Below, piece by piece: positions 24,430-58,300 of a stretch of 64,000 nucleotides of DNA (its first letter is position 1; each line of letters opens with the position of its first letter). Below the pieces are notes generated by a model. It did not search any database, was not told the DNA's origin, and saw only the letters and a program-made list of their open reading frames with translations. The DNA comes from a virus. Taxonomy: Duplodnaviria > Heunggongvirae > Uroviricota > Caudoviricetes. The stretch lies in the IMG/VR virus record IMGVR_UViG_3300025413_000008, one strand, 5' to 3'. The position numbers and the translations under genes were made by a program.

Positions 24430-24465
24430 TTACTCTATTATACTAAGTATAATAGAGTAAGTCAA
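24430..24465 (-). promoter_or_regulatory. Sigma70 promoter TTGACT-17-TATAAT embedded in a perfect 31-bp palindrome
   Basis: Arms 24430-24444 and 24446-24460 are exact reverse complements. Confidence 0.85.
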
Positions 24466-26609
24466 CGTGTTTCTTTCATCATGTTAGGATCATTTGGAGA
24501 AAAGGAGCCACGGTTTCCGACTGCGGATTTAACCTGATTCGGATTAAAAACTACCCAAACTTCACCGGACTTTGCATTGCTGTTGTTTGGAATGATTTCA
24601 TTGATAATAGCACCATCAAAGCCAAGCTTCTGTAAGGTTTTTACAAAGTGATCACCTTCTGGTCCGTCAAACAGTTCCCAGCGTTCAAACTCATCAACAT
24701 AATAATATATTGACCTCAAGTCAATACCATTGTCTTTAAATCCTTGCACGGTTTCTTCGTTATCTAACATATGTGAAAGATTGTTATCTCTTAGATCAAT
24801 GGGATTCTGTACTGAAAGATATACAGGCAAGATTCGTCCACTTGGCTTATATTCACCGGGGTAATCTGGTTTCTCAATGAACGATTCAGCAAACATTGGA
24901 TCAACCGCAAAGAAGGAACCATGACGTTCTACTTCAAATGCCATACCCAATGCACTTGCAAAGCCTGTGCCATGAGTGTTGAACGTGTCAAAGTCTTTAG
25001 TAGTAGCATGATAGAATGTCATTGGCTTATGACCATCCCATGCATGAGTGTGCTTTAGCCAATCGTCCATTCTTTTTTGGCGATGCTGTTCATCATAGCC
25101 GGGAAACAGTTCTTCTTGTTCCTCTTCTGCTAAGAATGACTGCCATTCGTTCATCAGGCTTTCGGCAATCTTACCGTCTGCTCTAGCTTGGGGAGGGATG
25201 CCTGCTCTGGAAGTCTTGAAGCCAAATGCCTTAGCGTTCTTCTTGATCGCATCTGGCTTGACATCTATTGTTAACGCCGTGCACCATCGTGGGTCATTCT
25301 TTTCTTTTGCTGATGGGATGTATCCTGATGCTTCGTCAATATAAGGTAAACGAACATTTTTATAGCGATCAGGATCATGCGGCTTAACTTCTTGTGTCTT
25401 CTTAGGCTTTGGTTCTCTCCAACCACGTTCCCATGCTGCCGCACCTTTTCTTGCCGCAAGATTAACGTCTTGTCCTCTTGCTCGCGCTGAACGGACAAAA
25501 TGGTCAATCACTTGCTGCTTGGTGGTGTAGGCTTCGTCAAGTTGTTCTTCTTGCATTTCATAGCGTTTCATGATTTCATCTGGAACATTATCATCCCATC
25601 CAACATAATAATTATCACTAATTTTATCTATCGCAGCGTCAAGACGATTTCTATAGTCGTATGGTATACCCAGTTCTTCTGCACCACTGCCGTGAATGGC
25701 CTCAGTGGCATCCCACCAGTAAGTATCACCGCTGTAATAGAGTCCACGAAGATGTTTGTGTTGTGATTTTTTAGTTAGATTATACAGAGCACGTGGTGTA
25801 GGGTTTTTCCAATGTTTTAACGAGCTTTCTTCATTGATTATTGCATCAAACTGGTGCTTCAATTCTTCAGCAAGAGTGTCTTCTTGCTCGGCAATTTCCT
25901 CTTCAATGCTTAACTTACTGCTGCGAAGTTTATCACGTAAGTTATATAGTGCATCAATGCCCTTTTGTGATCTAACTGCTTTATATGCAAGATTTTCTGG
26001 TGAGAATTCTCCGCCCTTAGATAATCCTGCCTGACGATAACGCTTGATCATATGCAACACATTATCCAGCCGCCCTAAGTCTTTTGTTTTTAAAGTAAGG
26101 TCAACCAAATCTGCTAGTTTTTGATATTTTGCTTTGGTTGCTGTCTGATCAAAGTTTGCTCTGCGTTTTACTGGATGCTTAATCCAGCGATTATTTAAAA
26201 TACTATATTCACCAAGTGACACTACAGGCTCGTTGCTGTCTTGCACATATACTTCTACTGGAATGCCATGGACAGTAATATTATGAGAGTCATTATAAAT
26301 TGTCTTTTTGGCTTTGAATAATTCCTGATAGACTTCATTGTCAGGAAACCGCGACATATCCACAACTATGTGTAAATCAAGATCGCTATGTTTTGTATAA
26401 GAATATGCAGCATTTGAGCCAGAAATGGTTACGTCTTTTACATTAACATCACTGATTCCAAGTTCTGACATGAAATCGTCTGCAATACTTAATAGACTAT
26501 CTTTAACTTCTGGATCAAGGGTTTCGTCTATCCAAAGGTTGGGGTTAAGTTTGTCGTGAAACTTAACTGCGTCTGAAAGTTTAAATGAATGAAGTTCTTT
26601 AATGTCCAT
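24462..26609 (-). CDS. Multidomain late protein: N-terminal Pol-beta-type nucleotidyltransferase plus C-terminal ADP-ribosyltransferase-like (ART-PolyVal-type) domain
   Basis: SGSN...SDLDLH motif; FYHAT...GSFFA...ILPVYLS...GFDG...VVFNPNQVKS; Glu-rich linkers. Confidence 0.75.
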   Translation of the reverse strand: MDIKELHSFKLSDAVKFHDKLNPNLWIDETLDPEVKDSLLSIADDFMSELGISDVNVKDVTISGSNAAYSYTKHSDLDLHIVVDMSRFPDNEVYQELFKAKKTIYNDSHNITVHGIPVEVYVQDSNEPVVSLGEYSILNNRWIKHPVKRRANFDQTATKAKYQKLADLVDLTLKTKDLGRLDNVLHMIKRYRQAGLSKGGEFSPENLAYKAVRSQKGIDALYNLRDKLRSSKLSIEEEIAEQEDTLAEELKHQFDAIINEESSLKHWKNPTPRALYNLTKKSQHKHLRGLYYSGDTYWWDATEAIHGSGAEELGIPYDYRNRLDAAIDKISDNYYVGWDDNVPDEIMKRYEMQEEQLDEAYTTKQQVIDHFVRSARARGQDVNLAARKGAAAWERGWREPKPKKTQEVKPHDPDRYKNVRLPYIDEASGYIPSAKEKNDPRWCTALTIDVKPDAIKKNAKAFGFKTSRAGIPPQARADGKIAESLMNEWQSFLAEEEQEELFPGYDEQHRQKRMDDWLKHTHAWDGHKPMTFYHATTKDFDTFNTHGTGFASALGMAFEVERHGSFFAVDPMFAESFIEKPDYPGEYKPSGRILPVYLSVQNPIDLRDNNLSHMLDNEETVQGFKDNGIDLRSIYYYVDEFERWELFDGPEGDHFVKTLQKLGFDGAIINEIIPNNSNAKSGEVWVVFNPNQVKSAVGNRGSFSPNDPNMMKETR

Positions 26610-28016: not shown

Positions 28017-28196
28017 GATATTATTATTTATCCTTCAGATCGTGTTATCAAACGGATATAACGTGCCTATTCTTATTGTCAAGAAAAAATAGTGGTTTTT
28101 TATTTGAAGATCATCCAATCCAACCCACCGTTGGAATCAAATCGGTCTGGTGCCGCCCCAACCTTCATGAATCATATTATGTTTCCTATATAAAAT

Positions 28197-28360
28197 GGCC
28201 CGTTCTGTTGACGGGTGGGCCAGACCCCGGAAATCATGCTGCTAGAGCAATATCCATGGTTGAATTATCATTTGCAGATACTTCTATTTAGTCTATAATG
28301 CGACTAACCAATCAGTCTAGGCGTTCCTATTCCGTGACAATCGATCCTATATTCAGGCCC
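28197..28360 (-). ncRNA. ssrA: Two-piece tmRNA, coding piece; tag ORF 28234-28275 encodes ANDNSTMDIALAA*
   Basis: 5' GGGCCTG pairs with acceptor CAGGTCC-A-CCA including G3-U; ANDN...LAA tag; 3' hairpin GGCCC-ACCCGTCAACAGAAC-GGGCC typical of alphaproteobacterial tmRNA. The 3' end is approximate. Confidence 0.92.
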
Positions 28361-28372
28361 ATCATAAAGAAA

Positions 28373-28558
28373 CTAAAACATTCCGCCTTTTCGGCGTTCT
28401 TTTCTGCACCATGCAGAATATGATAAAATTTTATCCTTATTCTTTTTCTTGGCACAGTATGCCTTATACTCTTTGTCTGTTTCAACGGTAGGAAGTTTCT
28501 TTCTTCCTCCCCTATAAAACTGTCTTTTACCAGACCATGGATTAGAATATATTGTCAT
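28373..28558 (-). CDS. 61-aa Lys/Arg-rich protein encoded inside the tmRNA intervening segment
   Basis: SD AAGGA immediately after the CCA end; ORF fills most of the 208-nt spacer. Confidence 0.65.
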   Translation of the reverse strand: MTIYSNPWSGKRQFYRGGRKKLPTVETDKEYKAYCAKKKNKDKILSYSAWCRKERRKGGMF

Positions 28559-28568
28559 AGTTTCCTTA

Positions 28569-28633
28569 TGGTGGACCTGTCGGGTACCGCCCCCGAGTCT
28601 TGTCTACCTTTATTGATAGCCATCATCAACTAA
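28569..28633 (-). ncRNA. ssrA: Two-piece tmRNA, acceptor piece
   Basis: T-arm TCGGG-GGCGGTA-CCCGA then CAGGTCC-A-CCA; GACAA pairs with TTGTC and GTTGATG pairs with CGTCAAC of the coding piece; TATAAATA at 28639-28646. The 5' end is inferred. Confidence 0.92.
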
Positions 28634-28637
28634 TGAC

Positions 28638-29786
28638 CTATTTATAATTCAAATCGTTGCTCTTGTCAAGAGTTTTTCCAACGTACTCATGAGAAAAACA
28701 TACTCTTTTAATATGTTTGTCCTTGTGGTTCTTTTCCTTGACGGCGCGGTTGGTTATATAATCTTTTCTACCCTTACCGTTCTTTGACGTTCCTCTCCAC
28801 CGTGGGGAAGAGTTTCTGTATTCACCCAATCGTGGATGCGCAGTTTTAGAAAAAAACCTACAACCTCTTGCTAAGAAGATTTCACCAATAGCATCACTTA
28901 AACGGGTCCCAAACCCAAGACCCTGATATTCCGGAAGAATTACTGTTCGGTGTCCTCTCCATGCATTCTTGAAGTTGCCATTTGGGAATGGAAGAGCGGC
29001 AGCAAATCCTACTATTTCACCATCCCAAATAGCTAACCAGCATTGTGCAGTTCTATTAAGGTTCCCGTCGAGATAGTGATGGTGGCGAAAGATAGGCCAG
29101 ATTTCGGTTGAACAAGGTATGATTTCCAGTTTGATTTCGGGTCTTGGCCGAAGAGACCCCCTTCCGGTCATTTGACCGGTCATAGTATCATATACCCAAT
29201 CGGGCTGTAACCATTCAATCACATCATAATGGCATGTTGCAAGAACAATGTTCTTTAGGTTATGTTTGTCAACATATCTACGAATTGCAACAGAACACGA
29301 TTTAGCTACATTCCTGTCAATAACAGATGTGAACTCATCAAAGACCATACCTGATACCAATGATCTTGCGAGATTGGCGCGAAACTGTTCTCCATTTGAA
29401 AGAACATGATATGGCCTGAGCCAAGATGGAATGGTGTTTAATCCCACAGCAGACAGTCGTTCTGCAGCTTGATCTGCCGATTCAAAGTGTGAGCAGATTG
29501 CTTTAGTTTCATCCCATTCAGGCTGTTCAGTAGAACCAAACGATTTCAACAGAGATGACTTACCTGATCCAGATGGACCAACAATCAACCCGATACCATA
29601 ATCTTCCGGAATACTTGGAACATTTGGAACAGTAAATGTGGTAGTCCCGTTGAACTCATAGTCAAACATAGATGATACTGCTTTAGTGATATCATCTTGA
29701 GATACAGATACCGATATATCTCTACTCGGTATCTTATCGTTCTCAAACTCAAATAGAGATGCTATACTATCGTGCATATTATTCAT
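28638..29786 (-). CDS. ABC-type ATPase fused to a GNAT acetyltransferase
   Basis: GPSGSGKS, LSNGEQFR, VFDEFTS; RTVILPEYQGLGFG. Confidence 0.85.
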   Translation of the reverse strand: MNNMHDSIASLFEFENDKIPSRDISVSVSQDDITKAVSSMFDYEFNGTTTFTVPNVPSIPEDYGIGLIVGPSGSGKSSLLKSFGSTEQPEWDETKAICSHFESADQAAERLSAVGLNTIPSWLRPYHVLSNGEQFRANLARSLVSGMVFDEFTSVIDRNVAKSCSVAIRRYVDKHNLKNIVLATCHYDVIEWLQPDWVYDTMTGQMTGRGSLRPRPEIKLEIIPCSTEIWPIFRHHHYLDGNLNRTAQCWLAIWDGEIVGFAAALPFPNGNFKNAWRGHRTVILPEYQGLGFGTRLSDAIGEIFLARGCRFFSKTAHPRLGEYRNSSPRWRGTSKNGKGRKDYITNRAVKEKNHKDKHIKRVCFSHEYVGKTLDKSNDLNYK

Positions 29787-31401
29787 CTGCTATTTCAAAC
29801 AGGTCCCCATATGGGTTCTGTTCTTTTTCGTATTGCTCTTTTGCATTCTGAATACGTGCTTGTGAAATCTTGATATAATCTGGATCAAGATCAATGCCAA
29901 TATAGTTGAAGCCTTCAAGCATCGCAGCCTTACCTGTTGAACCAGAACCATTGAATGGATCAAGAACGGTTCCACCTTTTGGTGTGACTAAACGACACAG
30001 ATACTTCATCAAGTCAGTTGGTTTCACTGTTGGGTGATTGTTCTTTTTGTTTTCTGGATGAATCCACTCATTGTCTGTGCAATCACATGGTTCAATCTGA
30101 TATGCGCCACATTTGTTACATACGCGACGAATGCCGTTTCCCTTTTGATTAGATACAGCCTTTTTATCAAATCCATCAAGCCCCGAATCTCTATCGGATT
30201 TGCTGGCTTTGGCACAGTAGAAGAATCTTGCTGCTGATCCCGTGTCGCCTCGTTTCGCTGATGGAACTCTTTGATATTCACCATAGCAATTAGTATTATC
30301 ATTTCCTGTATGTGATGGCTCTGTTCCTTTTACATCACCTTGTTGACCCTTACTTTCAGGAAACAATGCGACAACTTCATCACTACCATCATGAATGATA
30401 TTAGCGGGGAATCTTCCCGATACTGTTGCAGTTCCAATACTTATTTGCTTAGCTCCAATACCATATGCTCCACACCCCTTAGCGTTTGGATTATCGTTGC
30501 CCCCTTCACGGGCGAGATTATTTAAATTTTCTCCACCTTTTAAATCATATGTGCGAGTCTCATTACCAACACGACAATCATTAATATTGATGCCACCAGT
30601 TCCATGCTTTAGAACGTTCTTCGCTACAGTCTTTTCAGATAGTGGCTTCCTAGCAACGCAAATAGGCTCCCATGCTGGCTTCAGTGCCGTGCCCCAGCCA
30701 TCCCATTGTTTTGCTTCTTCTGTTGCTGGTGCAGTAATGTTTACTTCAGTCCGTGTCATTCCATATGAATGTGAGCCGCTTGCTGCTCCATTTTTAATGC
30801 CTACTTTCTTTTTACCCACGATTTCACGTTCCGCTGCATCTCGCAGAGGTCGCAGTTCTGAGGGAAGTTCAAGAACATCAACAAGTTTTTCCCAGTTATC
30901 TCCTGACGGTATTCTGAGACCGCTTTCCCAGTTCCAACATGCACCAGATGGGGTTCCTACTATTAGTTCGCTAATATCTTGTCTTGATAAACCCTTCTTT
31001 TCTCTTGCCGCTATCAATGCTATTCTAAACTTCTCAATAGATTCCGAAGGGGCAATGCCTTCTTTATCAATAGCCTTACCGATGTTCATAGACTTAGGAA
31101 AGCCAGAGCCATAAACCCATCCGATTTGATCGCGAATATCAAATCCAGCGTCTTCAATCGCTACTACCATTCTATGATATGTGCGAGTGCCAGAGAATGC
31201 AAGTAGATGACCACCTGGTTTCAATACTCGCATCACTTCTGACCACATTTCAACACTATATGCGATGCCAGAACTGTCCCATGATTTACCCATGAAGCCA
31301 AGTTCATACGGGGGATCAGTTACTACAGAATCTACAGAGTTGTCTTCCATAGTTTTTAATACGTCAACACAGTTGCCGTTATGCAATACAAATTTACTCA
31401 C
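29779..31401 (-). CDS. Beta-class N4/N6 DNA methyltransferase with an inserted XRE HTH domain
   Basis: DPPY near the N-terminus, LDPFNGSGSTG near the C-terminus, HPTVKP; GTG start. Confidence 0.9.
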   Translation of the reverse strand: MSKFVLHNGNCVDVLKTMEDNSVDSVVTDPPYELGFMGKSWDSSGIAYSVEMWSEVMRVLKPGGHLLAFSGTRTYHRMVVAIEDAGFDIRDQIGWVYGSGFPKSMNIGKAIDKEGIAPSESIEKFRIALIAAREKKGLSRQDISELIVGTPSGACWNWESGLRIPSGDNWEKLVDVLELPSELRPLRDAAEREIVGKKKVGIKNGAASGSHSYGMTRTEVNITAPATEEAKQWDGWGTALKPAWEPICVARKPLSEKTVAKNVLKHGTGGININDCRVGNETRTYDLKGGENLNNLAREGGNDNPNAKGCGAYGIGAKQISIGTATVSGRFPANIIHDGSDEVVALFPESKGQQGDVKGTEPSHTGNDNTNCYGEYQRVPSAKRGDTGSAARFFYCAKASKSDRDSGLDGFDKKAVSNQKGNGIRRVCNKCGAYQIEPCDCTDNEWIHPENKKNNHPTVKPTDLMKYLCRLVTPKGGTVLDPFNGSGSTGKAAMLEGFNYIGIDLDPDYIKISQARIQNAKEQYEKEQNPYGDLFEIADE

Positions 31402-43315: not shown

Positions 43316-46300
43316 TTAAGTTATATCCACTTCTAAGAATGTTGCAGGAATAGTTTGACTAATCTGCAATGGATCACCAAGTGTTGGGTTGTATACATAT
43401 GAATTCCATGTCTGGTTATAGTAAGTATCTGGCAATTTGTTTGCTGACAATATGCTGAATACATCAGCATATTCCGGAATATATACCTGTGCGCCTGTGC
43501 CATTTGCCCCACGCTGCAATCCACCAAGTGTATTAGTTACAGTATTGACAATACTGAATTTAATTTGTTCACCATTAATATATATAGTGTTGCCTATCAA
43601 TGTAGTTATTGTCAGTGAGTTGCCCGCGTTAATATAACTGCCAGTATTAATTACTAGTTCTGGTGCCAAACCAATGATCGTGATTTGATAGTTAGAACTA
43701 CTTATATACTTTCTAGTAGTATTGTTATATACAGAAATACCGGTAATGAGTGTTTTATCTACACCAGTCAATCCTATAGTATAAACGCCGCCACTTGCTG
43801 CCGGAACTATTGATGTCTGAGTAACACTATTAGTTACTGCACGGTAATCTTGTATATAAACCAAATCACTTTCTTGATATAATGGCTGAGTCAACCAAGT
43901 TCTTGATAGGTTATTTGCTCTATATACTGATGCCTGACCTAACTCATTAATGAAGTTCATATAGATTTCACCATTCGGCGTTGCAGTCGGAATCATATTA
44001 GTCATAATTACGGCTGATCCTGATGTAATGCTCGTCAGAATTCCAACTTCATTTGATGGATACAATCTGAGGCTTGATGAGGGGACTCTATACCCATTAA
44101 TGGTAATCCATAGACGATCAGGATTATTCTGTTCCCACTGAGTTACGTTAACCACACCAGTTGCATCAGACAGGGTTACGTTTGTGCCATACTGTGAATA
44201 TGCTACACTGAATTGAGTTGGACTATAAATTGTGCTTACGTAATATACTGTTCCCTGAATCAATCCACCAAGAATATTTGTGCCATCTGCTGAACCTGTT
44301 GCAGTAAACACTACAGGAGTTCCATAATCAAGAGTAGCAGTGCTCGCCACGGTGATTACATTACTGTTTCCACCACTTGAAACCGAAGTTGATGACGTTG
44401 TAGTATCAACTAGATAATAAGAACCTGCTACCCAAGTGTATCCCCCGCTTATGTAGGATGATATTTGTGTTACTGGGTTATTGACTGCATTTAATGCAGC
44501 ACTGAATGGAGTAGTATACAAGTCAAATACATTGGTATTAATTATTCTTGCATAATATTCGTTTCCATTAAGTTGATTTGATCCTACTGTCCCATCAATT
44601 CTGATTAATTGATTTTCTGTAAAGTAGTTGGTACCGTTTGTGGTTACACGAACGGCTGGTGTTCCTCCAACAGTTACTAGCATTTCACCAGTGGCAGTAG
44701 TCACAGCAAACACGCTTCCCGGTACACCATTAACGGCAGTTGCAGAAATTCTGAATGCGGTAGAACTCACTATACTTTGAACAAAATACACAGTTCCATC
44801 TGTAGCTATTCCCCCAAAACTAGTTCCTTGGAAAGTAACTGGTTGACCAACCACGAATCCGGAAGTACTAACAACTGTGATATTATTGGTACCAGAAGTT
44901 GTTGCGTTAGATGCCGTCACCGCATATGGAGAAGTAATATTATTTGAAATACTTACGATCTGACTAACAATATTTGAATTTGTCGCAGTAATTGTTTGAG
45001 TATTTAAATATTGTCTTCTAGTATCATTAAATGTAGTGACTCCTATTTCTGACCCGTTTGATGGCGCAGAATTAAATGTAATTGTGTCGGCACTTGGATC
45101 AATTGTATAAGTGGACGGCGATGCTCGTAGTCCATTAACTTCTACAATTGCGTTAGATGGATTGCCTGCGCCAACATAGTTAGACAAAGCAAATTGCGTC
45201 TGAGAACCAGTTCCAGTAAACAATTGAGTTTCAGGTACTGTATATCCATACTGGATTGGTAACGTCTGACCAAATAATGAATATACCAGATAATCAGAAT
45301 TATTTGTATAATTTCCTGTTGAGAAAATTATCATTGCAGAAGTTCCATTTGGTTGGATACCAAAGGCATAATCATATGTTACGAACGTTGCGCCGCCTTG
45401 TTGAGTAGTCAGCGATAATACTGGACCCGATGGAGTTGCGGATATAGTAAAGGTTGTGCTACTTAATATCTGTGCCACATAATATCTTTGTAGAGGAACA
45501 ATGTCAGGTCCAAACATATTTGCACTGAAGGTGATAGGCGTATTGACTACCATTCTAGAAGTTGAATTTGTTGTTATGGCGTTAGTTCCAGTAGTAGTGT
45601 TAGTAACGATATCTGTGCCACCAGCAATTAATTTCGTACCATTATGATAAATTATTGGCGATGTCCATGTCAATCCCGTTCCTGCCTGAACAATTACATA
45701 CATGGTTCCTGTTGCATCAGTGACATCTAAAATGGGACCAGGCTGTCCAGTAGCCGAATTGAACGATGCGGATATGGTTATTGTATTGGTTGCTTTACTA
45801 ATACTCTTTACATAATATACAGTGTCTGGATTAATTCCACCAAAAGTTATCCCTTCAAATGTTATTGGTGAATTAAGAGACAGATTTGATAAATTATTGC
45901 ATAGAATTCCATTACCATTACTGATAGTCTGAGTTGCAATGGTATCAATATCATATGTACCCGGCTGTATTACACCACTTCCTTGATAGATTGGCGCACT
46001 GTAATTACAGTCTACATAGATTTCATTAAATCCGGATACCGGATCAACCCGAATAGGATCAACATTGCTATTTGATTTAATCAATTGGTTACCATTTCCT
46101 ACTTCATATACATCTAAGCGAATCGTTTCAGTAATAGGATATGGAAGCGGGTTAGTAAGAGTAAAGGTCTTATTAATCCAATTAACCGTATAATCAATGC
46201 CATTATTTAATGTTGTTCCTAGTCCGGATGCTACACCCACTGTCTGTACAAAGATTTGTGCAGGGAAATGAGCGATTCCAGCAAAACTATATGTCGCCTG

Positions 46301-49300
46301 TGTTCCGGAGGTTGGGACAAGATTCTTGGACACCACATTATACCCAGAGTGACCGTATTGTTCAATGTTCCAATCGGTTCCCGGACGAGTTGCGACCGTC
46401 ATCGCAACGTTATCTGTTACTACTCCCGGAACCAATTCTTCGGGACCGTATCCATACTGGAATGGTGCACCCTGAACATCATATGTTGGTACAGGCAGTC
46501 CAGTATTATTAAATGGCTGATCCTGTAATACCGTATCCAATGGATACTGTAGTGATGGCTGGAATTCATTACCATAGTAAATTGAGTTAGGATACGTGAC
46601 TCCATCAAATAACTGAGTTAAGTCAACACCCGGCATATTTGTTGTAGGGGCATAATAACCAATTACTCTATCCATTGCATTCAATCGTGGATCATCAGAG
46701 TCAAGAATTTGCCATTTACCTATTACAAAGTTTTTGTCATTATTTGAAACAACGCAGATGTATACTCTGCCGTTAAATTTAACAATTGATTGATTAAAGA
46801 AGAATGGTTCAGGCAAGAATGCAAAACTTCCAGCTTTGGCAATAGTGAAGTTTGTGTTTGCAGTTGATGTAACCGTAATGGCGCTTCCACCCGGAATTGT
46901 TGTTACCTGAATTTGAGTGCTGTTAAGAATTGCAGAAATATAATATGTCAAGTATGGAGAGATATTAGAAACTGCAGTACTAGTATTACCAGTAAACACA
47001 ACTGCATCATTAACACTAAATTTAGAAGTATCAGAAATTGTCAATGAATTATTTGATACAGTGACCGAATTTACAGTATCAATCGTAAATCCACCAAAAC
47101 CAAGATTTATTCCACTTACCGGCACAGTCATTGATGGGTTAGCATATACTTCAACTTGATTTGGGGATATCACTTTTAAGTAGCATGTCAGTGATGGATA
47201 TGGCACGATTCCAGAACAGATTACGCTCGTGATTCCTCCAGAAGAGTTAATATTATTAACCTGCAATACTGCATCATTTAATGGCGTTGTTCCACCAAGG
47301 ACCGTTCCACTGATTGTAATAGTATTGTTTAGCGCAAACCCTGATCCAGCACTAGTGATTATCGCCCTGTATCCACCTAAAATATACGACATATCAAATG
47401 TAGGAGTTGAAGTTATGTATTGATTCAACACCGAACCCGTTGTGGAGTTGCTTAAAGTTACTGGTGGGCCACCCGCAGTTGCAGAAACAGTAATATATGG
47501 ATCACCAACCCCTGTCATAGTACCATTGTCTGTAGTTAGTGTGAGAGTTGCACCACCTTTAGTCAAAGACACAGTAAAGTGAGTTGAATCGGCAATGCTA
47601 GATACAAAATACTGCTTGCCAGTTAAGATGCCACCAAGTCCCTGTCCAGAAAATACGATTGACATGCCAACATACATATATGATGTGTCGTCGCCCGTTA
47701 GTAGATTTCCGTCAGATGATGTTCCGGTAACATTTACTTGAATATTATTCACCCCGGTTTGACCAGAATATGTCAATACATAATATGTAGTATTAGATGA
47801 AAGACCACCAATGGCAGTTGCAAACTGAATTGGCATATTAACATAGAACAAATCAGTCCCACCAGAAACAGAATCAATAGCAACAATATTATTACCGTTA
47901 GCAACGGTTGCATTTACGTTTCTCTGAATCAGATTTCCAACAATACCGCTAGTAATATTCGGATATTGACCAGATGTTCCGTACAGTGTAAATTTTTGAC
48001 CATTTATTTGTCCGGGACTTACTGGCAGCGACACGTTCATGGTCATTGCACCAGTATCCGTAGTTAATTGAACACTATCAATTTGGTCGGTAATCAATGC
48101 TGTTCCAGTTGCATTTGACAACGTAAGGATAGAACCATTAATATACTGGGAAATCTGCATCGTTGTACCACTGAGAATATTACTTACATAGTAAGTAGTA
48201 CCTGCCACAATTCCACCAAATGCGGTTACAGGGCTTCCCGAAATAGTCATTTGCGTAAAGATAATCGGATCGTTTACATTAAATTGGAATGTGCTTCCCA
48301 CAGTGATGACATTAGTACTAGATGCTGTTGATGTCATTGTAGTAGTCAGCGGGTTTTCATTTGCAGAAATTGTAAATGTCTGTTGATCAATTACTGTGCT
48401 AATATAATAAACTTGATTTTCTACGACTCCTCCAATCACACCGTCACTGAAAAATACTGGAAGATTTTGATAGAAACTGCTTGTTCCACCAGTTCCAATA
48501 ACACTAGTTGGGACAGTCAGATAATTGGTTCCTGAGGTAGTATTAGTAACAGTCAATATTCCGGGATAATTTATATCAAGAACCGCAGTATCAACAATCT
48601 GAGCAGTCAGACATGTCATTGGTATTGAGCCTATGGTTGCCGTAGTTAAAGAAACTACGGAACCATTTTGTGTTGCGGAGACTGTAAATGCAGTTTCACT
48701 TATTACTTGCGCAACATAATATTCTTGATTGGCCACTAATCCACCAATCACTGCACCATTAAACTGGACCGGCATACCGACATAAAATCCAATTGTCGTT
48801 CCCGAGGCATTTGGTTCAGGATTAGATGGGTTGTTATTATTGTCTTGTGGAATTAAGGTGATAGCATTATTGCTACTGCTTGTGCCACTAACATATCTAA
48901 TGGTTGATGACCAATCAGTTTGTCTATTATTAGCCACGCTAACAATTTCAAATACTGCGCCTTGTGCCGATGCCAAGATTCCAGAAATAGATGGATTGAC
49001 GCTTTCTAATTGAATGGAAGAACTTGATACTTGGTTAATATTCAAGTAGTTTCCAGCAAAGAATGATCCATAATACTCACCGGCTTTCCAATCAATTACT
49101 TGAGATTTGTAAGTTGTTCTGTCAAACTTAACGGTAATATTATTTTCTCTTATAGGATAAGATGTTGAAATGGCATATGCCCGTGCACCTAAGTTAAAAC
49201 TTAAAGTGTTGGTTGTTCCCTTATCATATATCTGAATTCTATTTTTATCATTTATAGCATCGCGATATGAAGAATACAATGCAATAACAGAGGTTGGGTT

Positions 49301-52300
49301 CGTCTGTAACACATTTACATAATACCATTCGTTATCTGATAGCAGTCCGATACCAACCTTATCAGCGCCAGCCTTATATTGGATTACGTTACCTGTCTGT
49401 AAGTTAGGTGCATAAACAACCACAGTATGTAATAAAGAGTTGATTGCAGTATTGGTAAATGAAATTGTTGTTGACGGATCAATTACAATTTCTGGTGTGA
49501 TGGCATAGCCCTCACCCGGATTAATTACATCAATATTTAATACGGAATCAATGCCCATAACCGCTTGTAGTTGTGCGGGAACTGTTGGAGGCGGATAAAG
49601 GGTTGTATCAATATATGCCGTTACCTTTGGAGTATTTACATATCCTGCGCCACCGTTCAATAGAACTACCGGAGGAAGATTTATTGTGATTTTTGCGCCC
49701 GGAAAATGATTGGACACTGTAGTTCCATTATATCCTCTTGTTAGACCAGCAATAAGATTCAGTGACGTATCAACCGCACTATATTGAATCTGTTCATTGT
49801 CAATAGTTAGAATACCATTAATAGGAAAACCATTGGCATTTTCAACTATCATGCTATTTGACTTTAAATCCATATATGAAGTTAATGTAGTCATCAAGTA
49901 GTCTGGCTGACCGGTCAATGATACTCCATAGTTCTGTTTCCATTGAGTATATGGTGCAGTTGACCAAATGCTGTCAGTATTAGCATATTCATATTCATTA
50001 CTTGGTAAACCATACACAATCTGGGGAGATATAAATTTTTGATAAGTGCTATTATATTGTGCAGGAAGGTCAAAATCTGTCAGATTTCCTACATAATCTT
50101 CATTTCCTTTATAATCATATAAGAAATCTTTGATCAATACATGATATGGTTTAGTTTCATTAATATAGCCACTCAAGAAATCAAAATTATCTGTTACATA
50201 ATTTTCATATGGCAGAAGTTCACGAAGAGTGTGCTGTACATCAAGTAATGATGTTTTATTTAACCATGGCAAGAAATTTTGGGATTCTACAGTTTCACTC
50301 TGAATGTATTCAAACATCAGAATTAGGCTTGAATTTCTATACTGAAGTAAGTCTTCAGTAAAGATTTGTTCATTTAGTGCGCGGATAATATAATATGTCT
50401 CTTGACTTGGATAGTCGTCATATACGCCAGTATCAAAGAAGTTTCCATCCCATCCAAACTGACCGCTTGCATAATCCCACAATGTAGAATTAAACTGAAT
50501 GGTACCATTCTGAAGTCCGACACGAGTCCATACACCATTACCATCATAGCGATAAGTTTCAGTATTACCATTTTTACTTTGTAATACAGTAACAATAGTT
50601 CCTGAAGATACATTTAATGTTTTTAGATCAGCATAATATGGAACCTGATAAAGCGATTTGGTATTATTGTCGTATCCAGCAGCCCACCAATTTGTATATG
50701 ACCAATAATCTGACGTAGTGTAATATTCACCTGAGGCAAACAAAAACGTAGAGTCCGGTCTTAGTTCAGCGATGGGATATTGAATTAAAATACTATTAGC
50801 ATATGTTAAATAGTTGTTAAGTGCTAAAAATCTGTCATAAAAGAAACTTTGTCTTGGATGGGACATTACGCCAGACTGCACCGCAAGTGGCAAGAATGGG
50901 TCAGGAACAACTGCTCCGGATTTATCACATCCGGAAAATGAATACAATAACCTTTCATACAATGCAGTAGGAATTCCTGTATAATTAAAATTATTTCCAA
51001 ATGTCGCGACTGTTGTCTGTCTTTTCACTATAGGAGGAAAACCGGTCAGGAAACTTTTAGGATCGCCCTGATTAATAAGTGCAAATTCTTCATGTGAGAC
51101 GTCTTGTGCCTTTGCAGTTGAATATCCGATATGAAATATTGAATCTTTTCCGTTAAAAAATGTAGATGCATTATAAAGCCCAATCGTGTTTGGAGACAAT
51201 GGGGCAACAAATGGAATACCGGACGCAGACGGATTTGCAATATATGTGGATACAATTGAATCTGATAATGATTTATTTCTCTGATCAAATATAATATTAG
51301 TGTTGCGTACCCAGAAATAATAAACTGGAGAAACAACGTTTGAAGAATTCAATACGCTTGCAACGCAATATTTATTGATATCATATACGCTGCCTGAACC
51401 ACTATATTTATTTGGCGGAGAGAAACTTGCTACCCAAGTATATACTGCGACATCTGAACCCGGAAATACCGATCCCCAATATTTACTATTGTATGTTACA
51501 TCATTTTGGTGATAGTTTACCCATCGGATATTAGTTACATCCAACCAAAGCTGACCGACTTGTGCAGTGCCCCACATGTTACCATTGTTATTAGCAAGAT
51601 TGCTATTGTATGATGCAGGGTCAACGCTTGTAACGTAATCCAGATTTTCGCGGGCTGCACCAAGCAACTTGCCCTGTAATGGGTCCATGTAATCAAAGTT
51701 TACAAGGGTCTGGTTGCTTGTTGCACTGTAAAGTTGTGAGTTCTGAATGGAGTTGATATCAACCACTGGTGCAGAATTTCTATATACGGACCAGACTGGA
51801 ACACCTGTTGGGTTTGTATATACCAGAACTTGACCATTATTTACACCAGTCAAGAAGTTTGGAGTTCCAATAACAATTGTGTTATCGTTAATATCAAGAG
51901 CAGTACCATACATAGGCGAGTTACCATATGATGTTGAATTGTCATTGACACTCTGAGCGTACACATATTGTCCCGGTGTTGTCAAGCTTTCATTATAATC
52001 AGCAAGATACTGGAAGAGATAGACTGCGCCTGCATTTGGATATGAATCAACAAATTGAGTTGCATTATTATCAAATACGGTATCGTTGCTTAAATTAAAA
52101 GCATCTACAAAATCAAATAACGTGCCTTCGTAACGAGTGTCAGTTGGTGCTGAAACCACCATATTATTGAACGCGTCAATTTTAATACTAGTACCAAATT
52201 GTGTTGGACCAGAAGCATATGGACACTGTAGTACTTGTGTTTCTGTGTATGGCTGGAAGCCCAATTCAGAAAATGCAGTAGTATTAAATGCAGTGATTAC

Positions 52301-55300
52301 TAACTTTTTATTAACTGGCGCAATTGCACTATCAATGCACTGAATAATAATATTATTATTACTAGTGGCAGCAGCCTGAATATTAATCAAACCTGAGGTA
52401 TTAATTGCATTAGCAACCTGAATTGCCGTCCATCCAGAAGAAAGATTTACCGCATATCCGTTGATCAGAACTGTTGTTGAAGAAACAATATTACATCCAG
52501 TAGTCCCAACGACAACACCATACTTGGCACCACCATTTGAAAACTTATAAACTGCTCCTTCTTGACCATTAATGTCACTTATTTCAAATGGCGATCCAAC
52601 AAGAATATCAGAACCGCTATTAGCATTTGCGACAGCATAACCAAAGTGAATTCCTGTTCGGTCATGATAATTGGAATTAAATGTCTGAGCTAAGAAAAAC
52701 TTACTGTCATTGACATTTAAAATATCACCAGCATTTAAATTACTATAATAATATAAGTTGGTGCCAATTATTGCATAGTTACTATCATCAACAATCGTGC
52801 CGTTAACAGATACATACAGTGGTGTCACTTGAACATAAACATTTACGCCAGTTAATGACACACTATTTAAATCTACTACAGTTGTGGTAATACGGCTTGT
52901 TTTTATCGTAATATTGTTACCTGATATAGAAGCGATGTAGTATACTCGCGCGGCATTGATACCAGTTCCAGCCAATGACGCACCAGTGAAGGCTATTGGG
53001 GTATTTACGGCATATGCACTCATGCTCGTGCTGCATGTGATTGTATCATTGGATGAGTTTGTAGCACTAGCAGTAATAGTAGCGGTCGCGACAGGAGTCC
53101 AAGCCAACGGGAACACTGATGTCTGGTTAGGAACTTGACCTGATTGCACTTGGAAATTCTGTTCAGTGCGATTCAATACAGACACTTGTCCCCAATCTTC
53201 AATAGTCATGCTATAATTTTTGAGTGGCGCTCCAGCAATCAATATGCTACCGTCTTGATTGGTTGAAAGAGAGGCGCTGAAATTATCCCCCGAAGTATAC
53301 CCATAGGTTGATCCAGTGATTTCACTTGCATAGCGATATGTTACTTGAGTTGCGGTACCTGATCCAGTGCCCGCTCCAGTGGCAATAAAGGTGATTCCGA
53401 CCGCATTATATGAAGCGCCAATTGCCGTGAAATCTGTTGAACCAAGTTCGGTAATTACATAAGTCTGGCCTGTATTAAAATATCCAGCCTGCAAAGGAAT
53501 ATTGTCTCTACGATAAACGTAGATGTTGTTGTTTGTAATATCGGAAATGTAAATCCAGTTTGCATCACCAGAAATTGCTACTGCACTGCCCCAGTTGGTT
53601 ACCCCACCCGGCGCTGTGATGGCACTCTGATATTGAATCAGGTTGTCACCTAATGGACTATTATTAAGTGTATAAATGAATACCTCAGGCGTTCCTGTGG
53701 GCTGAGATACGACATAGATATCGTTTGATGCGGAATACGAAATTTCAGAACCAAATGATGTTCCGTTAGTAATTGTCTGGTAAATTTCATATTCTTGAGT
53801 TAATGAATTGAGTACATATCTATAGACATTTCCTGCGGCAGCATCGCCAACAAGATATCCGATATCAGGAGTGTAGGCAACTGCTGAACCAAATGTGGAG
53901 GTTGATACCGGTTGATTAAGAAGTGTGTTCTGCATAACATAGTTGTTAGCTTTAAGCAATACCGCCCAATTACCATCAACATTGTTATCTACCCATACCA
54001 AATTATCAATGAAGTCTGCCTGAGTGAGATTTAGATTTCCAATATCGGATGGATTAGTTACACGATGTGACTTAAATGTCAACCCGATACCTAATCCCTG
54101 AATTGAATTTTGTGTAGTATTATTAAGGTTTAAATTAATTACCGCTTCATATATACTTGGAACATCAATGACAATATAATAACCATTTACGTTAGATGCA
54201 AAATTCACAATAGACAAAGACTGCAATCTAGCCAAATTGTGAGGAGCACTAAAAGTTAATGTTACGGTAGAATTGTTATTATTACGAACCTGTAATATCT
54301 GTCCGACAACCTCCCAAGAATAAACTCCCCAATCCTGCATAAAGTTTGCCAACCATGCATATTGTCCGACATAAAAATTCTGAATTGGCACTATAGCGCC
54401 ACTGGAATTGGTTGCACGGGGAAGACCTGCATAATAGTAAGATGCTAGTGTTATATCGTTGAAGTTTACAAACCCAGCATTTGGGTATGTGTTATTCACT
54501 GAAGGATTAGAGGTTACAGGCAAAAAATTAGGAGAGGAAATAGGAGTACCATAGTTGTACAGCGTATTCAATGGAATCTCTTGCATTGCGCCGTTAGTAT
54601 TAATGGTTCCGTCTGTTAAACTTACAATTGATGGGTCTCCCGTCATGTCACGAGCATTGATGGAAAAATCAATAAAATTATTATTTAGAGTTCCGCCAAA
54701 TTTTCCGGACAGTATTGACCATATTTCATTGACTGAATAGTTGATGCCACCAGTTGGTAAATTTGCACCTTCAAATGCACTTACTGAATTTAAAGTTCCT
54801 TTATTAATAATCAGATTCTGATAAACCTGAACTTGAGCAACATTAGTTAAATCAAGCAATGCCAAATAATCTCTTGGTCGGTAGCCAATCAGTGAATACC
54901 CAAGTGTGTCGGCATCATCATGAAGGTTTGCTTGATTGATATCATAAAATAATGTGCTTTCATATGCCCTCGTTGATGGATTTGAAAGCATGCCAATTTG
55001 GATTGCTTCGTAATTGGTCAATTTCCACTGAGATGGATTAAATTGAGTTGCAGGATTTACCACAACTTGTGCCTGATAATAATTGTTCTTATAAAGCACT
55101 ACCGAACCCCGCGTATATTTCACTGCTGGGTCCCATTCTTGCACATTATCCTGATTGAGAATAAATCCACCAGCATACATTGTCCCGTTCCATTCAGCCG
55201 ATTTTTCTCCACGAAGGAAAATGCGGTCTTGTCTTAGTCCGGTCACTAAGTTATAGATTACGTCATTGAATAATGTAAAATTATTAAACACAATACCGTG

Positions 55301-58300
55301 CTCAAAGTTACTGATATCAAATTGTCCGTATGCCATAGCATCGCCAACATTTTGTGTTTTAACACTAAACAAATTGTTATTACGAAATATTGCTAAATCT
55401 TTATTTTCAATAGGATAAAGATTTTGATTCAGGATGAAATTTTGGTCCTGAATGGTCAACGGTTGAACCAGTAGATTCTGTGGACTAATTTCCAATAAGC
55501 CTGCTGCAGGATTCAATGTAATAATGCTGCCAATATTCCATCCAGTCTGTGCCCAATAAAGAAACTCTTGGATCATTTGCGTCCAAGTTACTTGTATGCC
55601 ATTCTGAATGTCATTAAATAACATTCCTTGTGTTTCAAGATATTTACCATAACACATTAAAAATTGCGCAAGGTCTTGTGCATTGTAGAATTTTGTCCCA
55701 TATGGGACGATATCTGTTTGAGTGGCAGAATAATTTCTATATAAATTTACGGAAATATTTTGAACTGTAAGATTAGTTGTTCCTTTTCCTATCAATGGAT
55801 TCGCAATGGTAAAATAAGCATAAAGTTGTGAATTCCCATATACTGTCCAGTACCCATCATTCTGCTGCACTATGACGCCACTATACATTATTCTGTCTGA
55901 CGGTTGATTATTGTACAGTAGAATTTTGTAACTTTCGTCTGGAATTAATAATGACGAATTGTTACTGTTAGGTGATCCTTTTTCTACATAAAACTGTAGT
56001 AAATTTTTATCACTAAATCCGGCTAAACGATAAACCAGTCTTACATCCAAATTATTCAGCAACGTAGTAGTGTCAGCAGTAGCATCAATTCCCTGCTGCT
56101 TCTGATAATCTACAATCCAGTTAATATAACTTGTTTTAGCAGTACCATTACCATATATTTCAATATTGGATAGTACTAAGTGACTTCTGTTATTAACGAG
56201 ATATTGGTTAAAATCAGAATTATATTGGTAGTTGTCCAAGTCGACTCCCAAGTTGAAAAATTCAGCAGGACGAGTCAGAGCGTAAATTTTCATAAGGTCA
56301 AATGGATAAGTTGAACTGCGACGATATGAAAATTCTGTTGGAGCATCATCTCCTACAGCCCAGTCTTTTTGGAAAGTGCTTGGGTTGTAGTTTCCAATAA
56401 TTGATTGAAATGGTGAAAGCAATGTGCCATTCGTGTCAACTGGAATTATTTTTGACAGTCCGGGGCGGGCAAATTCCGTATTGATATACGGATTGCCATT
56501 GTTCCATATATAACCTGCTTCAAGATCACCCCAAAGAATACCATTATCGCTTGTATATGGTAGTGGACCATAGCGCGTTGTCCACCATGTTGGTTCATTG
56601 GCAAATCCGAGCATTTCCCAAGGAGTTTGATCAGGAGTTGTTGTATCGTAAAAGTATTCATACACTCCTCTCCAATATCCTTGTTGAATAGGAGCATTAT
56701 TCAGTCTATTTGCTGAATTAGTATAATTATATGTTAGAGTATTACTGCTATTATAATATTGCGTCTTGTAATCTAAACGATTCTGTCCAACCCAATTTAG
56801 GAACAATGGACTATAGATAGACATGAAGTCTTTATAGCTATATGTTGGATTTCTAAAGAAACCGGGTACGATTTCAAATTTTGAAATTGGAATCTTGGTG
56901 CTTAATTTCAAATTATTAAACACTCTGTTTTCAAATTCAAATAATGCCTGATCTCTGAAATCGGTGAGTACACCCAGAATCTGATCATAAGTTCCATAAA
57001 GTTTAGTATATGATCCATCGTGTCCCTTTATGAACCATGTCGGATTTGTGTAATTAGAGTCCAATACAATGGCAGGCTGAAATGCAGGGTATAGTCCCAG
57101 TTTTGTAGGAGTATTTGGCGCATATGATCCATATGTTTGATTATACTCTTTAATAATAATTTGATCCCCTGCCTGTAGGTTAATCAACACTTCTAATGAT
57201 GGTGAATCCGTATTAATTACGTAATCGACGCCAGACAACAATTGCTTTTCAACGGTAACGCCAGTAATATTGGTAATATGATAAACCAATACTCCATTAT
57301 AGTTCGCAGTTGCAAAATTATATATTTGACTTAGTGGATAAAATGTACTACTTGACAAATTATTAAATGTGTATGTATTTGACACGTATGGCGTCTGAGA
57401 CGGCAGCATGTCTGACCAAAAGAATGACTGGTCGCGGGTTTTTGCAGCAGTGATTTTTTGCAATGCCACATCTAAAATTTGTGAAGGCGTATAACGCTGT
57501 ACATAGTCAGTGTTCTGAACGGTATTAACAATCAACTGTTTATATGTAATGTATTCACGGCTGTTATACAGAAGAGCATCAAATATATTATATCTAGGTG
57601 AGCGAAGGAATGCTCCCGGCAAGACAAGAGAGGCAGAATTCTGAATAATCTTCGTTCCATATGGCAAAAGATTACCTAAATCTCTGTAATTGTTGGCTCC
57701 AAAAATTGGACCCGTTGTGTTTGGGGCATTAATGTATATGTCTTGATATTGGTCGCGAATATCACCCATATTAACGATGGCTAAATCTTCGTTAAATGGA
57801 TTATTATTTAAGTTGATTGGTATATCATAATAAGCCAAGTTACTTACTTGGTCACTAAGTACCAGAATTTGTATTACAGTTTTTGCAGTCGGAACATTTG
57901 CAAGTGTTATAGTAGTTGTAGTAGGACCAACACTAACAGTATAGTTGTTTGGGTTTACATATGTGTTATTTATGTATACTTTGATCGTTGGCCAACCGGG
58001 ATTATCTGATGTTGGTTCACTGAGAGCAGCAACATCACATACAAATGATGTAGTTGTGTTAACCAATGGATCAAAATTGTAATTAAATACTTGATACTGC
58101 ACACTGTCAGCGATTGCAGTTTGCCAACCTAGCTGTTTTACTTCCATGGCAATATCAGTATAATTATATACGTAACCAATATTTACCTTTTCTGTAATTG
58201 GGGTAGTGCCATTAATATACGAAAATGTGTCATTGTTCAATGACACATCAAAGCTGATGTCACCAATATTATTAATGTTACTGTATCTTACTGGGAATCC

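Follow-up and report, generated by a model that had tools for sequence, protein, structure and literature searches.

A transfer-messenger RNA (tmRNA) that is made of two pieces and encoded in permuted order is known from Caulobacter (Keiler et al. 2000, as cited in PMC9004378). Phages also encode such RNAs: two-piece forms account for 53 of the 133 unique phage tmRNAs collected by Buchholz et al. 2022 (PMC9004378), mostly from aquatic phages. The word "intervening" does not occur in that paper and the spacers between the two pieces are not discussed in it; a glutamine riboswitch in the 3' domain is. The present analysis concerns a tmRNA gene (ssrA) of this type on the minus strand of a 64,000-nt stretch of the Caudoviricetes record IMGVR_UViG_3300025413_000008 of IMG/VR, hereafter the window; loci and contigs compared with it carry L numbers. 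In this large freshwater phage, the region 28669-28194 very probably forms one transcription unit, in which a complete two-piece tmRNA is combined with a self-contained gene cassette that occupies an exchangeable slot between the two pieces and would be translated from the nascent transcript. As in the Methylophilales phage Melnitz and the pelagimyophages (PMC9004378), a complete permuted ssrA of the alphaproteobacterial type is carried by a lytic aquatic phage and lies downstream of an early-type promoter. In the window, the spacer holds a protein gene that is under selection, and it behaves as a cassette that is swapped.

The bacterial alpha-type tmRNAs (RF01849/RF04321) share with the window the order of acceptor piece, spacer and coding piece, as well as the GGCGGUA T-loop, the G3:U pair, the encoded CCA, a tag of the form ANDN...AA and a hairpin with the loop CAACAGAA. 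However, their spacers are 3-83 nt long and contain no filling open reading frame (ORF) among the 115 listed, whereas the spacer of the window is 208 nt long and coding. A second gene within the excised spacer of a permuted tmRNA is described in the 2025 tmRNA database paper (PMC11915505), where a tRNA-Ala in one intervening sequence is called unique and spacer ORFs are not mentioned. That tRNA-Ala is freed by the same tRNA-processing enzymes, whereas the passenger of the window is a protein gene, which needs ribosome access. The same paper describes group I introns that interrupt the T-loop of tmRNA genes and carry LAGLIDADG homing-endonuclease genes; here too, a protein gene lies within a tmRNA gene and is left out of the mature RNA. 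However, these introns are self-splicing, interrupt one-piece genes and encode a protein for intron mobility, whereas the window shows no intron and no endonuclease domain and its spacer would be removed by end processing. An ORF in a helix-closed, excised segment of a stable RNA is also known from Coxiella burnetii, in the S23p intervening sequence of 23S rRNA. The abstract of PMC4990558 gives results which suggest that no S23p protein is produced in vivo, and describes the element as selfish; the ORF family of the window, by contrast, is under clear purifying selection and also occurs free-standing. No description of an ORF in a permuted-tmRNA spacer was found in the literature searched, which left most subscription journals outside. 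Phage two-piece tmRNAs are not new in themselves, and ORFs in their intervening segments appear to be undescribed.

The identity of the tmRNA is supported by two Rfam covariance models. The alpha_tmRNA model (RF01849) matches over model positions 1-355 with 78.7 bits and an E-value of 1e-19, the gathering score being 50, and the tmRNA_permuted model (RF04321) matches over positions 1-213 with 74.3 bits, the gathering score being 47. Because both scores exceed the gathering scores, with an E-value of 1e-19 for the former, the match is far above chance. A preliminary description of the locus, made from its letters, had proposed a phage-encoded permuted tmRNA and an Rfam alpha_tmRNA search as a check; the two full-length matches and the phage genes around the locus bear this out, and all features that it had placed were found at their positions on the minus strand by direct reading of the sequence.

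The unit starts with a promoter at 28669-28639, read from the sequence, in which TTGACA (28669-28664) is followed after a 17-nt gap by TATAAA inside a T4-late-like TATAAATA element (28646-28639). The promoter and the end of the ATPase-GNAT gene upstream overlap at the stop codon of that gene, and the pattern TTGACA...TATAA(A/G)TA is conserved in L001, L003, L132 and L136. The promoter scanner skipped it, since that program accepts only -10 hexamers with T as the sixth base. The acceptor piece, that is, the tRNA-like 3' piece, spans 28632-28569 in the RF04321 and RF01849 alignments, with an approximate 5' end. It contains the T-arm UCGGG/GGCGGUA/CCCGA (28596-28580), the acceptor 3' strand CAGGUCC (28579-28573) and ACCA (28572-28569), so that CCA is encoded and the piece ends at 28569. 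The intervening segment, or spacer, follows at 28568-28361; its 208 nt form an insertion in both Rfam models and would be missing from the mature two-piece tmRNA. The coding, mRNA-like piece occupies 28360-28194 according to the Rfam alignments and is 95% identical to that of L004. It opens with the acceptor 5' strand GGGCCUG (28360-28354), which forms a 7-bp acceptor stem including G3:U with CAGGUCC. The order is thus permuted, the acceptor 3' half with its encoded CCA lying upstream of G1 at 28360 on the same strand. The tag frame, from the alanine resume codon GCA to UGA, is read at 28275-28234 and encodes ANDNSTMDIALAA, ending in LAA. The preliminary description also suggested that this phage tag may alter proteolysis or ribosome rescue during infection. 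The 3'-terminal hairpin with the CAACAGAA loop (28221-28197) is followed by the U-rich AUUUUAU and gives the coding piece a terminator-like end.

Acceptor stems at the same locus read GGGGGCG/CGCCUCC in L001, GGGCCCG/CGGGUCC in L003 and GGGCCUG/CAGGUCC in L004, with G3:U always kept, and the T stems of these three also vary with pairing always kept. The tag is conserved or nearly so in L001, L002 and L004. Judged from these aligned stems, the changes are compensatory and point to evolution of a functional tRNA-like domain. The tmRNA presumably relies on SmpB of the host, because the complete genome of the relative L001 contains no SmpB gene. The lack of a phage SmpB would also suit a different view, in which the RNA is not a working rescue RNA and is instead either a decoy titrating the SmpB of the host or a decayed piece of host sequence from an integration site; tmRNA genes are frequent integration sites, and phage copies consisting of the tRNA-like domain only have been discussed as possible SmpB titrators (PMC4131195). 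However, the gene of the window is complete: it has its own promoter, its tag frame is intact and the terminal hairpin is present. Its relatives conserve both the tag and, by compensatory changes, the pairing. It also lies amid phage genes, the genome of one close relative is that of a phage, complete and with terminal repeats, and the GC content of the tmRNA is the same as that of its surroundings. Decay or decoy function is therefore very unlikely, and a working tmRNA is the preferred reading.

ARAGORN reports no tmRNA in the window and none in L003 or L004, which have odd or long spacers. The program does call the tmRNA of L001 and L002, which has a 74-nt spacer and the same tag as the window. 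Long spacers therefore escape ARAGORN, and counts of phage two-piece tmRNAs that are based on it are probably underestimates. RF04321 finds the tmRNAs of the window (28194-28673), L003 and L004 where ARAGORN fails.

The spacer contains a gene of 61 codons at 28558-28373, with AAGGA placed 4 nt before its AUG. The product of 61 amino acids is a basic small protein, with an isoelectric point (pI) of 10.2 and 18 lysine and arginine residues against 5 aspartate and glutamate residues. A word-indexed search yielded three diverged homologues of 61-63 amino acids, and a profile search of 1.84 billion representatives yielded 10 clusters at 50% identity, mostly 59-65 amino acids long (range 49-84). The family shares the C-terminal motif NPWSG..FYKGK.KKLPT..TD.EY..YC...SY..WC..ERRK.G(M/L)F, in which Y31, Y47, W50 and F61 are invariant, and its length, motifs and C-terminus hold down to about 40-45% identity. 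Between the ORFs of the window and L132, 11, 8 and 33 differences fall on codon positions 1, 2 and 3, respectively; the non-synonymous rate (dN) is 0.15 and the synonymous rate (dS) is saturated, and other pairs behave similarly. Free-standing family genes occur in L143/L144 (Tara Oceans) and L145/L146, within rows of ordinary phage-like genes, and no tmRNA was found within 2.5 kb of them. Because of the homologues, the third-position excess and the free-standing lineages, the spacer ORF is, as far as comparative sequence analysis goes, a protein gene under purifying selection rather than a frame that merely happens to be open within a structured RNA. The preliminary description, which had placed a protein gene in the spacer, is supported on this point by the homologue clusters, the 11/8/33 pattern, the dN value and the free-standing lineages.

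The spacer is strongly structured (the precursor fold has a z-score of -5.8), as would be expected if it were conserved merely as an RNA structure and its ORF were untranslated. However, the third-position excess and the saturation of synonymous sites at a dN of 0.15, the preservation of length, motifs and C-terminus among distant members, the free-standing homologues in ordinary operons and the excess of viral spacer ORFs in sense over antisense or shuffled sequence all speak for a protein, and an incidental frame is extremely improbable.

The gene is not confined to one tmRNA. The preliminary description had suggested a search for homologues of the spacer ORF next to ssrA of related phages, and these were found in the permuted-tmRNA spacers of four further lineages: the gene encodes protein P0001 in the window, P0003 in L134/L135, P0004 in L136, P0010 in L147 and P0013 in L148/L149. 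The T-loops of these backbones are GGCGGUA in the window, UGCGAUA in L136 and the canonical UUCGAUU in L134, L147 and L148, and their tags differ in sequence and length. L004 is 83% identical to the window in the acceptor piece, 95% in the coding piece and 44% in the spacer, whereas the respective values for L134 are 64%, 53% and 76%; shuffled sequences set the random level at 51%, 50% and 53%. Because L004 shares the backbone and not the spacer, and L134 shares the spacer and not the backbone, the travelling unit is, by these alignments, the spacer itself, consisting of its closing helix and ORF, which is exchangeable between unrelated tmRNA backbones. Within the phage group of the window, the spacer measures 9 nt in L003, 74 nt in L001 and L002, 125 nt in L004 and 208 nt in the window. 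A tblastn search of the 61-residue family against the 120 listed IMG/VR loci with the acceptor motif gave no additional copies.

Two of the related loci show further arrangements. In L132 (2869-3966), an acceptor piece and an 85-nt spacer are followed by just GGGGG of a coding piece and then by the family ORF. The next gene encodes an HNH endonuclease and lies on the opposite strand, and beyond it follow a promoter and another permuted tmRNA, which is complete. This tandem may be a trace of homing-type or recombinational movement of the cassette. The 125-nt spacer of L004 (4051-4175) has no ORF and contains a tRNA-like T-arm, GAGGGTTCGATCCCCTT. The T-arm-like GGGTTCGATCCCC of this spacer was tried as a tRNA and rejected: ARAGORN found none, and Rfam listed tmRNA families alone, a weak test as overlaps within the same clan are suppressed.

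Spacers of viral and bacterial tmRNA genes were compared in IMG/VR and GTDB with one alpha-type acceptor motif and one extraction script. The matches listed comprise 120 loci per collection, at least 120 existing in each, and the following counts apply to these matches. The IMG/VR viral contigs have 98 unique spacers of 5-224 nt (median 74), 34 of which are at least 100 nt long. The GTDB genomes, nearly all of them Alphaproteobacteria, have 115 unique spacers with a median of 28 nt and a maximum of 83 nt; none of them reaches 100 nt and none is filled by an ORF. The earlier statement that the spacers of such tmRNAs are normally short thus holds for bacteria and fails for viral contigs, and the long spacer of the window cannot be regarded as unique, since long spacers with ORFs are common among the viral contigs listed. 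A sense ORF covers at least 70% of the spacer in 25 of the 40 viral spacers of at least 90 nt, compared with 7 of 40 in antisense and a mean of 7.6 (maximum 14) in shuffled sequences. The ORFs are mutually unrelated, and some encode membrane-like and some cysteine-containing peptides.

Related cassettes among these loci, compared in pairs, bear the marks of purifying selection and of exchange between backbones. In the 63-codon ORF of L098 and L052, 8 nt differ in 7 codons, all synonymously and with 0 non-synonymous changes; the flanking 280 nt of the tmRNA are identical in this pair, the spacer being the part of the gene that evolves fast at silent sites. The ORFs of L037 and L040 differ by 2 synonymous and 0 non-synonymous changes, and those of L099 and L086, whose backbones are unalignable, by 9 synonymous and 3 non-synonymous changes. 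One and the same spacer ORF, without a single difference, occurs in the different backbones of L093 and L065. The spacer thus seems to serve aquatic phages generally as a site where small genes come under control of the strong tmRNA promoter, and this forms part of the reading held to be very probable above. In L102, L131, L030, L118 and L063, the spacer ORF has no stop codon within the spacer and stays open for a few codons of the mature coding piece, up to the conserved UAG of GAAAUAGGAUCGAC, so that protein-coding and mature tmRNA sequence overlap.

The ends of the spacer are paired with each other. A comparison of 72 unique viral spacers shows a helix without interruptions that leaves 1-2 nt unpaired at the start and 4-5 nt at the end of the spacer. 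Its median length is 11 bp, compared with 5.8 bp in the shuffled control, and 68 different arm sequences occur among the 72. This is strong covariation in favour of a helix that would continue the acceptor stem in the precursor. In the window, the 5' arm UAAGGAAACUA (28568-28558) holds the Shine-Dalgarno (SD) sequence AAGGA and the A of the AUG, and the 3' arm UAGUUUCUUUA (28375-28365) holds the UAG stop codon of the ORF and is separated from G1 of the coding piece by UGAU (28364-28361). The closing helix of the window has 11 bp and a duplex energy of -9.6 kcal/mol, is present in the minimum free energy fold of the whole precursor (z-score -5.8) and pairs the SD with the region of the stop codon. 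In the nascent RNA, the SD is predicted to be unpaired with a probability of 0.94 as long as the 3' arm has not been transcribed; the predicted value falls to 0.00 for the full precursor and is 0.01 for the spacer after excision. Because the SD is predicted to be free solely before the 3' arm exists, translation of the ORF on the nascent, unprocessed transcript, before helix closure and processing, is favoured. Ribosomes would bind to the nascent RNA as long as its SD is single-stranded. Transcription of the 3' arm would then allow the closing helix to form and shut the SD, and the helix would stack under the acceptor stem. RNase P of the host, acting at G 28360, and 3' trimming by the host up to the CCA at 28569 would separate the two pieces, the spacer being discarded, and the tmRNA would work with host SmpB.

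According to the preliminary description, tRNA-type end processing would free a separate mRNA for the protein; in this model, RNase P and 3' trimming would release the spacer as a small RNA that serves as the main template. The ORF with its SD and stop codon does fit exactly between the two expected processing sites, and the excised spacer is predicted to form a highly structured hairpin (-61.7 kcal/mol), so that it could be stable. However, folding predicts a paired SD for the spacer once it is excised, the 5' and 3' untranslated regions would be 10 nt and 12 nt, respectively, and a downstream cut followed by trimming of the acceptor piece would presumably destroy the SD. As written, this mechanism is not supported by the folding model, and a released mRNA as the main template is possible but rather unlikely compared with translation of the nascent transcript. 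The broader proposal of one precursor with two products agrees with the data, one unit from promoter to terminator encoding both the tmRNA and the protein. As the selected spacer gene lies within the tmRNA unit, a single transcript would serve as pre-tmRNA and as mRNA alike.

Several points weigh against the reading of the region as a cassette-bearing unit with nascent translation. The timing model is a prediction from thermodynamic folding. The SD lies outside the helix in the cassettes of L098 and L119, and there is no obvious SD in L147 and L148, so that masking of the SD is no general rule. The survey covers alpha-type T-loops only, and IMG/VR contigs may include host fragments. In addition, database searches gave the 61-residue protein no relative of known function. 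Pfam contains no credible match, the best hit (APP_N, E 0.0032, in 1 of 14 members) being taken as noise; a sequence search of the PDB gave nothing below E 0.9; and Foldseek found no match in the PDB, a shape search of the ESM Atlas returning unrelated proteins with template modelling (TM) scores of at most 0.5.

The AlphaFold 2 (AF2) model of the protein, made from a 14-sequence alignment, has a predicted local distance difference test (pLDDT) score of 75 and consists of an extended basic N-terminal third and short helices at residues 29-37 and 47-57. No PHROG and no ESM Atlas feature matched the protein, and it shows no sequence or fold similarity to SmpB or Arf-type rescue factors. From its composition, the best guess is a nucleic-acid- or ribosome-binding accessory protein. 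Because the gene also occurs free-standing, is absent in close relatives and shares its slot with unrelated genes, the spacer is treated as an expression niche and not as evidence for a tmRNA-related function of the protein.

The gene could instead be coupled to its host RNA in function, the protein acting as a partner or modulator of the phage tmRNA through the tRNA-like domain, SmpB or the ribosome, with the position in the spacer ensuring stoichiometric co-expression. It does lie inside a tmRNA spacer in 5 of the 8 lineages examined, on unrelated backbones, and adjoins a tmRNA in a sixth (L132); the N-terminus of the very basic protein is extended, and the complete relative genome lacks SmpB. 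However, two lineages carry the gene free-standing without a tmRNA within 2.5 kb, the close relatives L001-L004 have tmRNAs without it, the slot hosts many unrelated ORFs that include membrane-like peptides, and the protein resembles neither SmpB nor ArfA-type factors nor any known fold. Such coupling is therefore unlikely, and the niche interpretation is retained. Similarly doubtful is the idea that the nested gene is more than a passenger, either through gating of tmRNA maturation by translation of the ORF or through action of the protein as a phage-specific cofactor or modulator of trans-translation. In the former case, a ribosome on the spacer would hold the closing helix open and delay RNase P and 3' processing, so that tmRNA output would be tied to the translational capacity of the cell. 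In the latter case, the protein would act together with the phage tmRNA and a neighbouring nuclease of the YafQ/RelE fold in cleaving host messages and recycling ribosomes.

The window carries a large terminase subunit, a phage single-stranded DNA-binding protein, a phage ATPase and an ORF of 5,928 codons, and looks like part of a very large phage. The long ORF lies at 43316-61102 on the minus strand and adjoins another of at least 965 codons (61103-64000, minus strand) that runs off the window. The ATPase-GNAT neighbour of the tmRNA is 98% identical to a gene in the IMG/VR contig L001, a 360,683-bp genome with direct terminal repeats that is rated complete. The exact 61-residue protein and its gene neighbourhood recur on 22-23 contigs from several lake metagenomes, 23 of them for the protein, and the layout of tmRNA and ORF is therefore not an assembly artefact. 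A blastn search of the tmRNA region against 50,697 GenBank phage records gave no match.

The tmRNA is flanked on the minus strand by genes for a 715-residue protein with an ART-PolyVal ADP-ribosyltransferase domain (24462-26609), an ABC-type ATPase fused to a GNAT acetyltransferase (28638-29786, PHROG 11143) and an N6/N4 DNA methylase with a helix-turn-helix insert (29779-31401). Such a set of genes resembles a neighbourhood for anti-defence or host takeover. Immediately 3' of the tmRNA lies a toxin-antitoxin-like pair at 28016-27407 on the minus strand, in which an acidic ORF of 63 amino acids (28016-27825, pI 4.4) overlaps a basic ORF of 141 amino acids (27832-27407) by 8 nt. Neither member has a Pfam or PHROG match by sequence. 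The AF2 model of the basic protein (pLDDT 84) matches E. coli YafQ and toxins of the YoeB/ParE/RelE family (Foldseek probability 1.00, target TM about 0.8), and three of its homologues are named YafQ by JGI. The pair has its own promoter-like sequence and also lies 3' of the tmRNA in L001-L004. Ribosome-dependent nucleases of the RelE type create stalled ribosomes, which tmRNA rescues. The presence of a predicted YafQ-like pair next to the tmRNA is suggestive in this respect.

The transcript described here would represent a new class of dual-function RNA, which is at once the precursor of a stable RNA and an mRNA and which carries an inbuilt conflict between folding and translation. The finding also exposes a blind spot of annotation: ARAGORN misses alleles with long spacers, and gene callers assign the ORFs while the tmRNA goes unnoticed. 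The spacer of permuted tmRNAs, which has been treated as disposable, would often be a coding slot in aquatic phages, and may thus supply these phages with small proteins whose expression is driven by a promoter that is strong and probably early.

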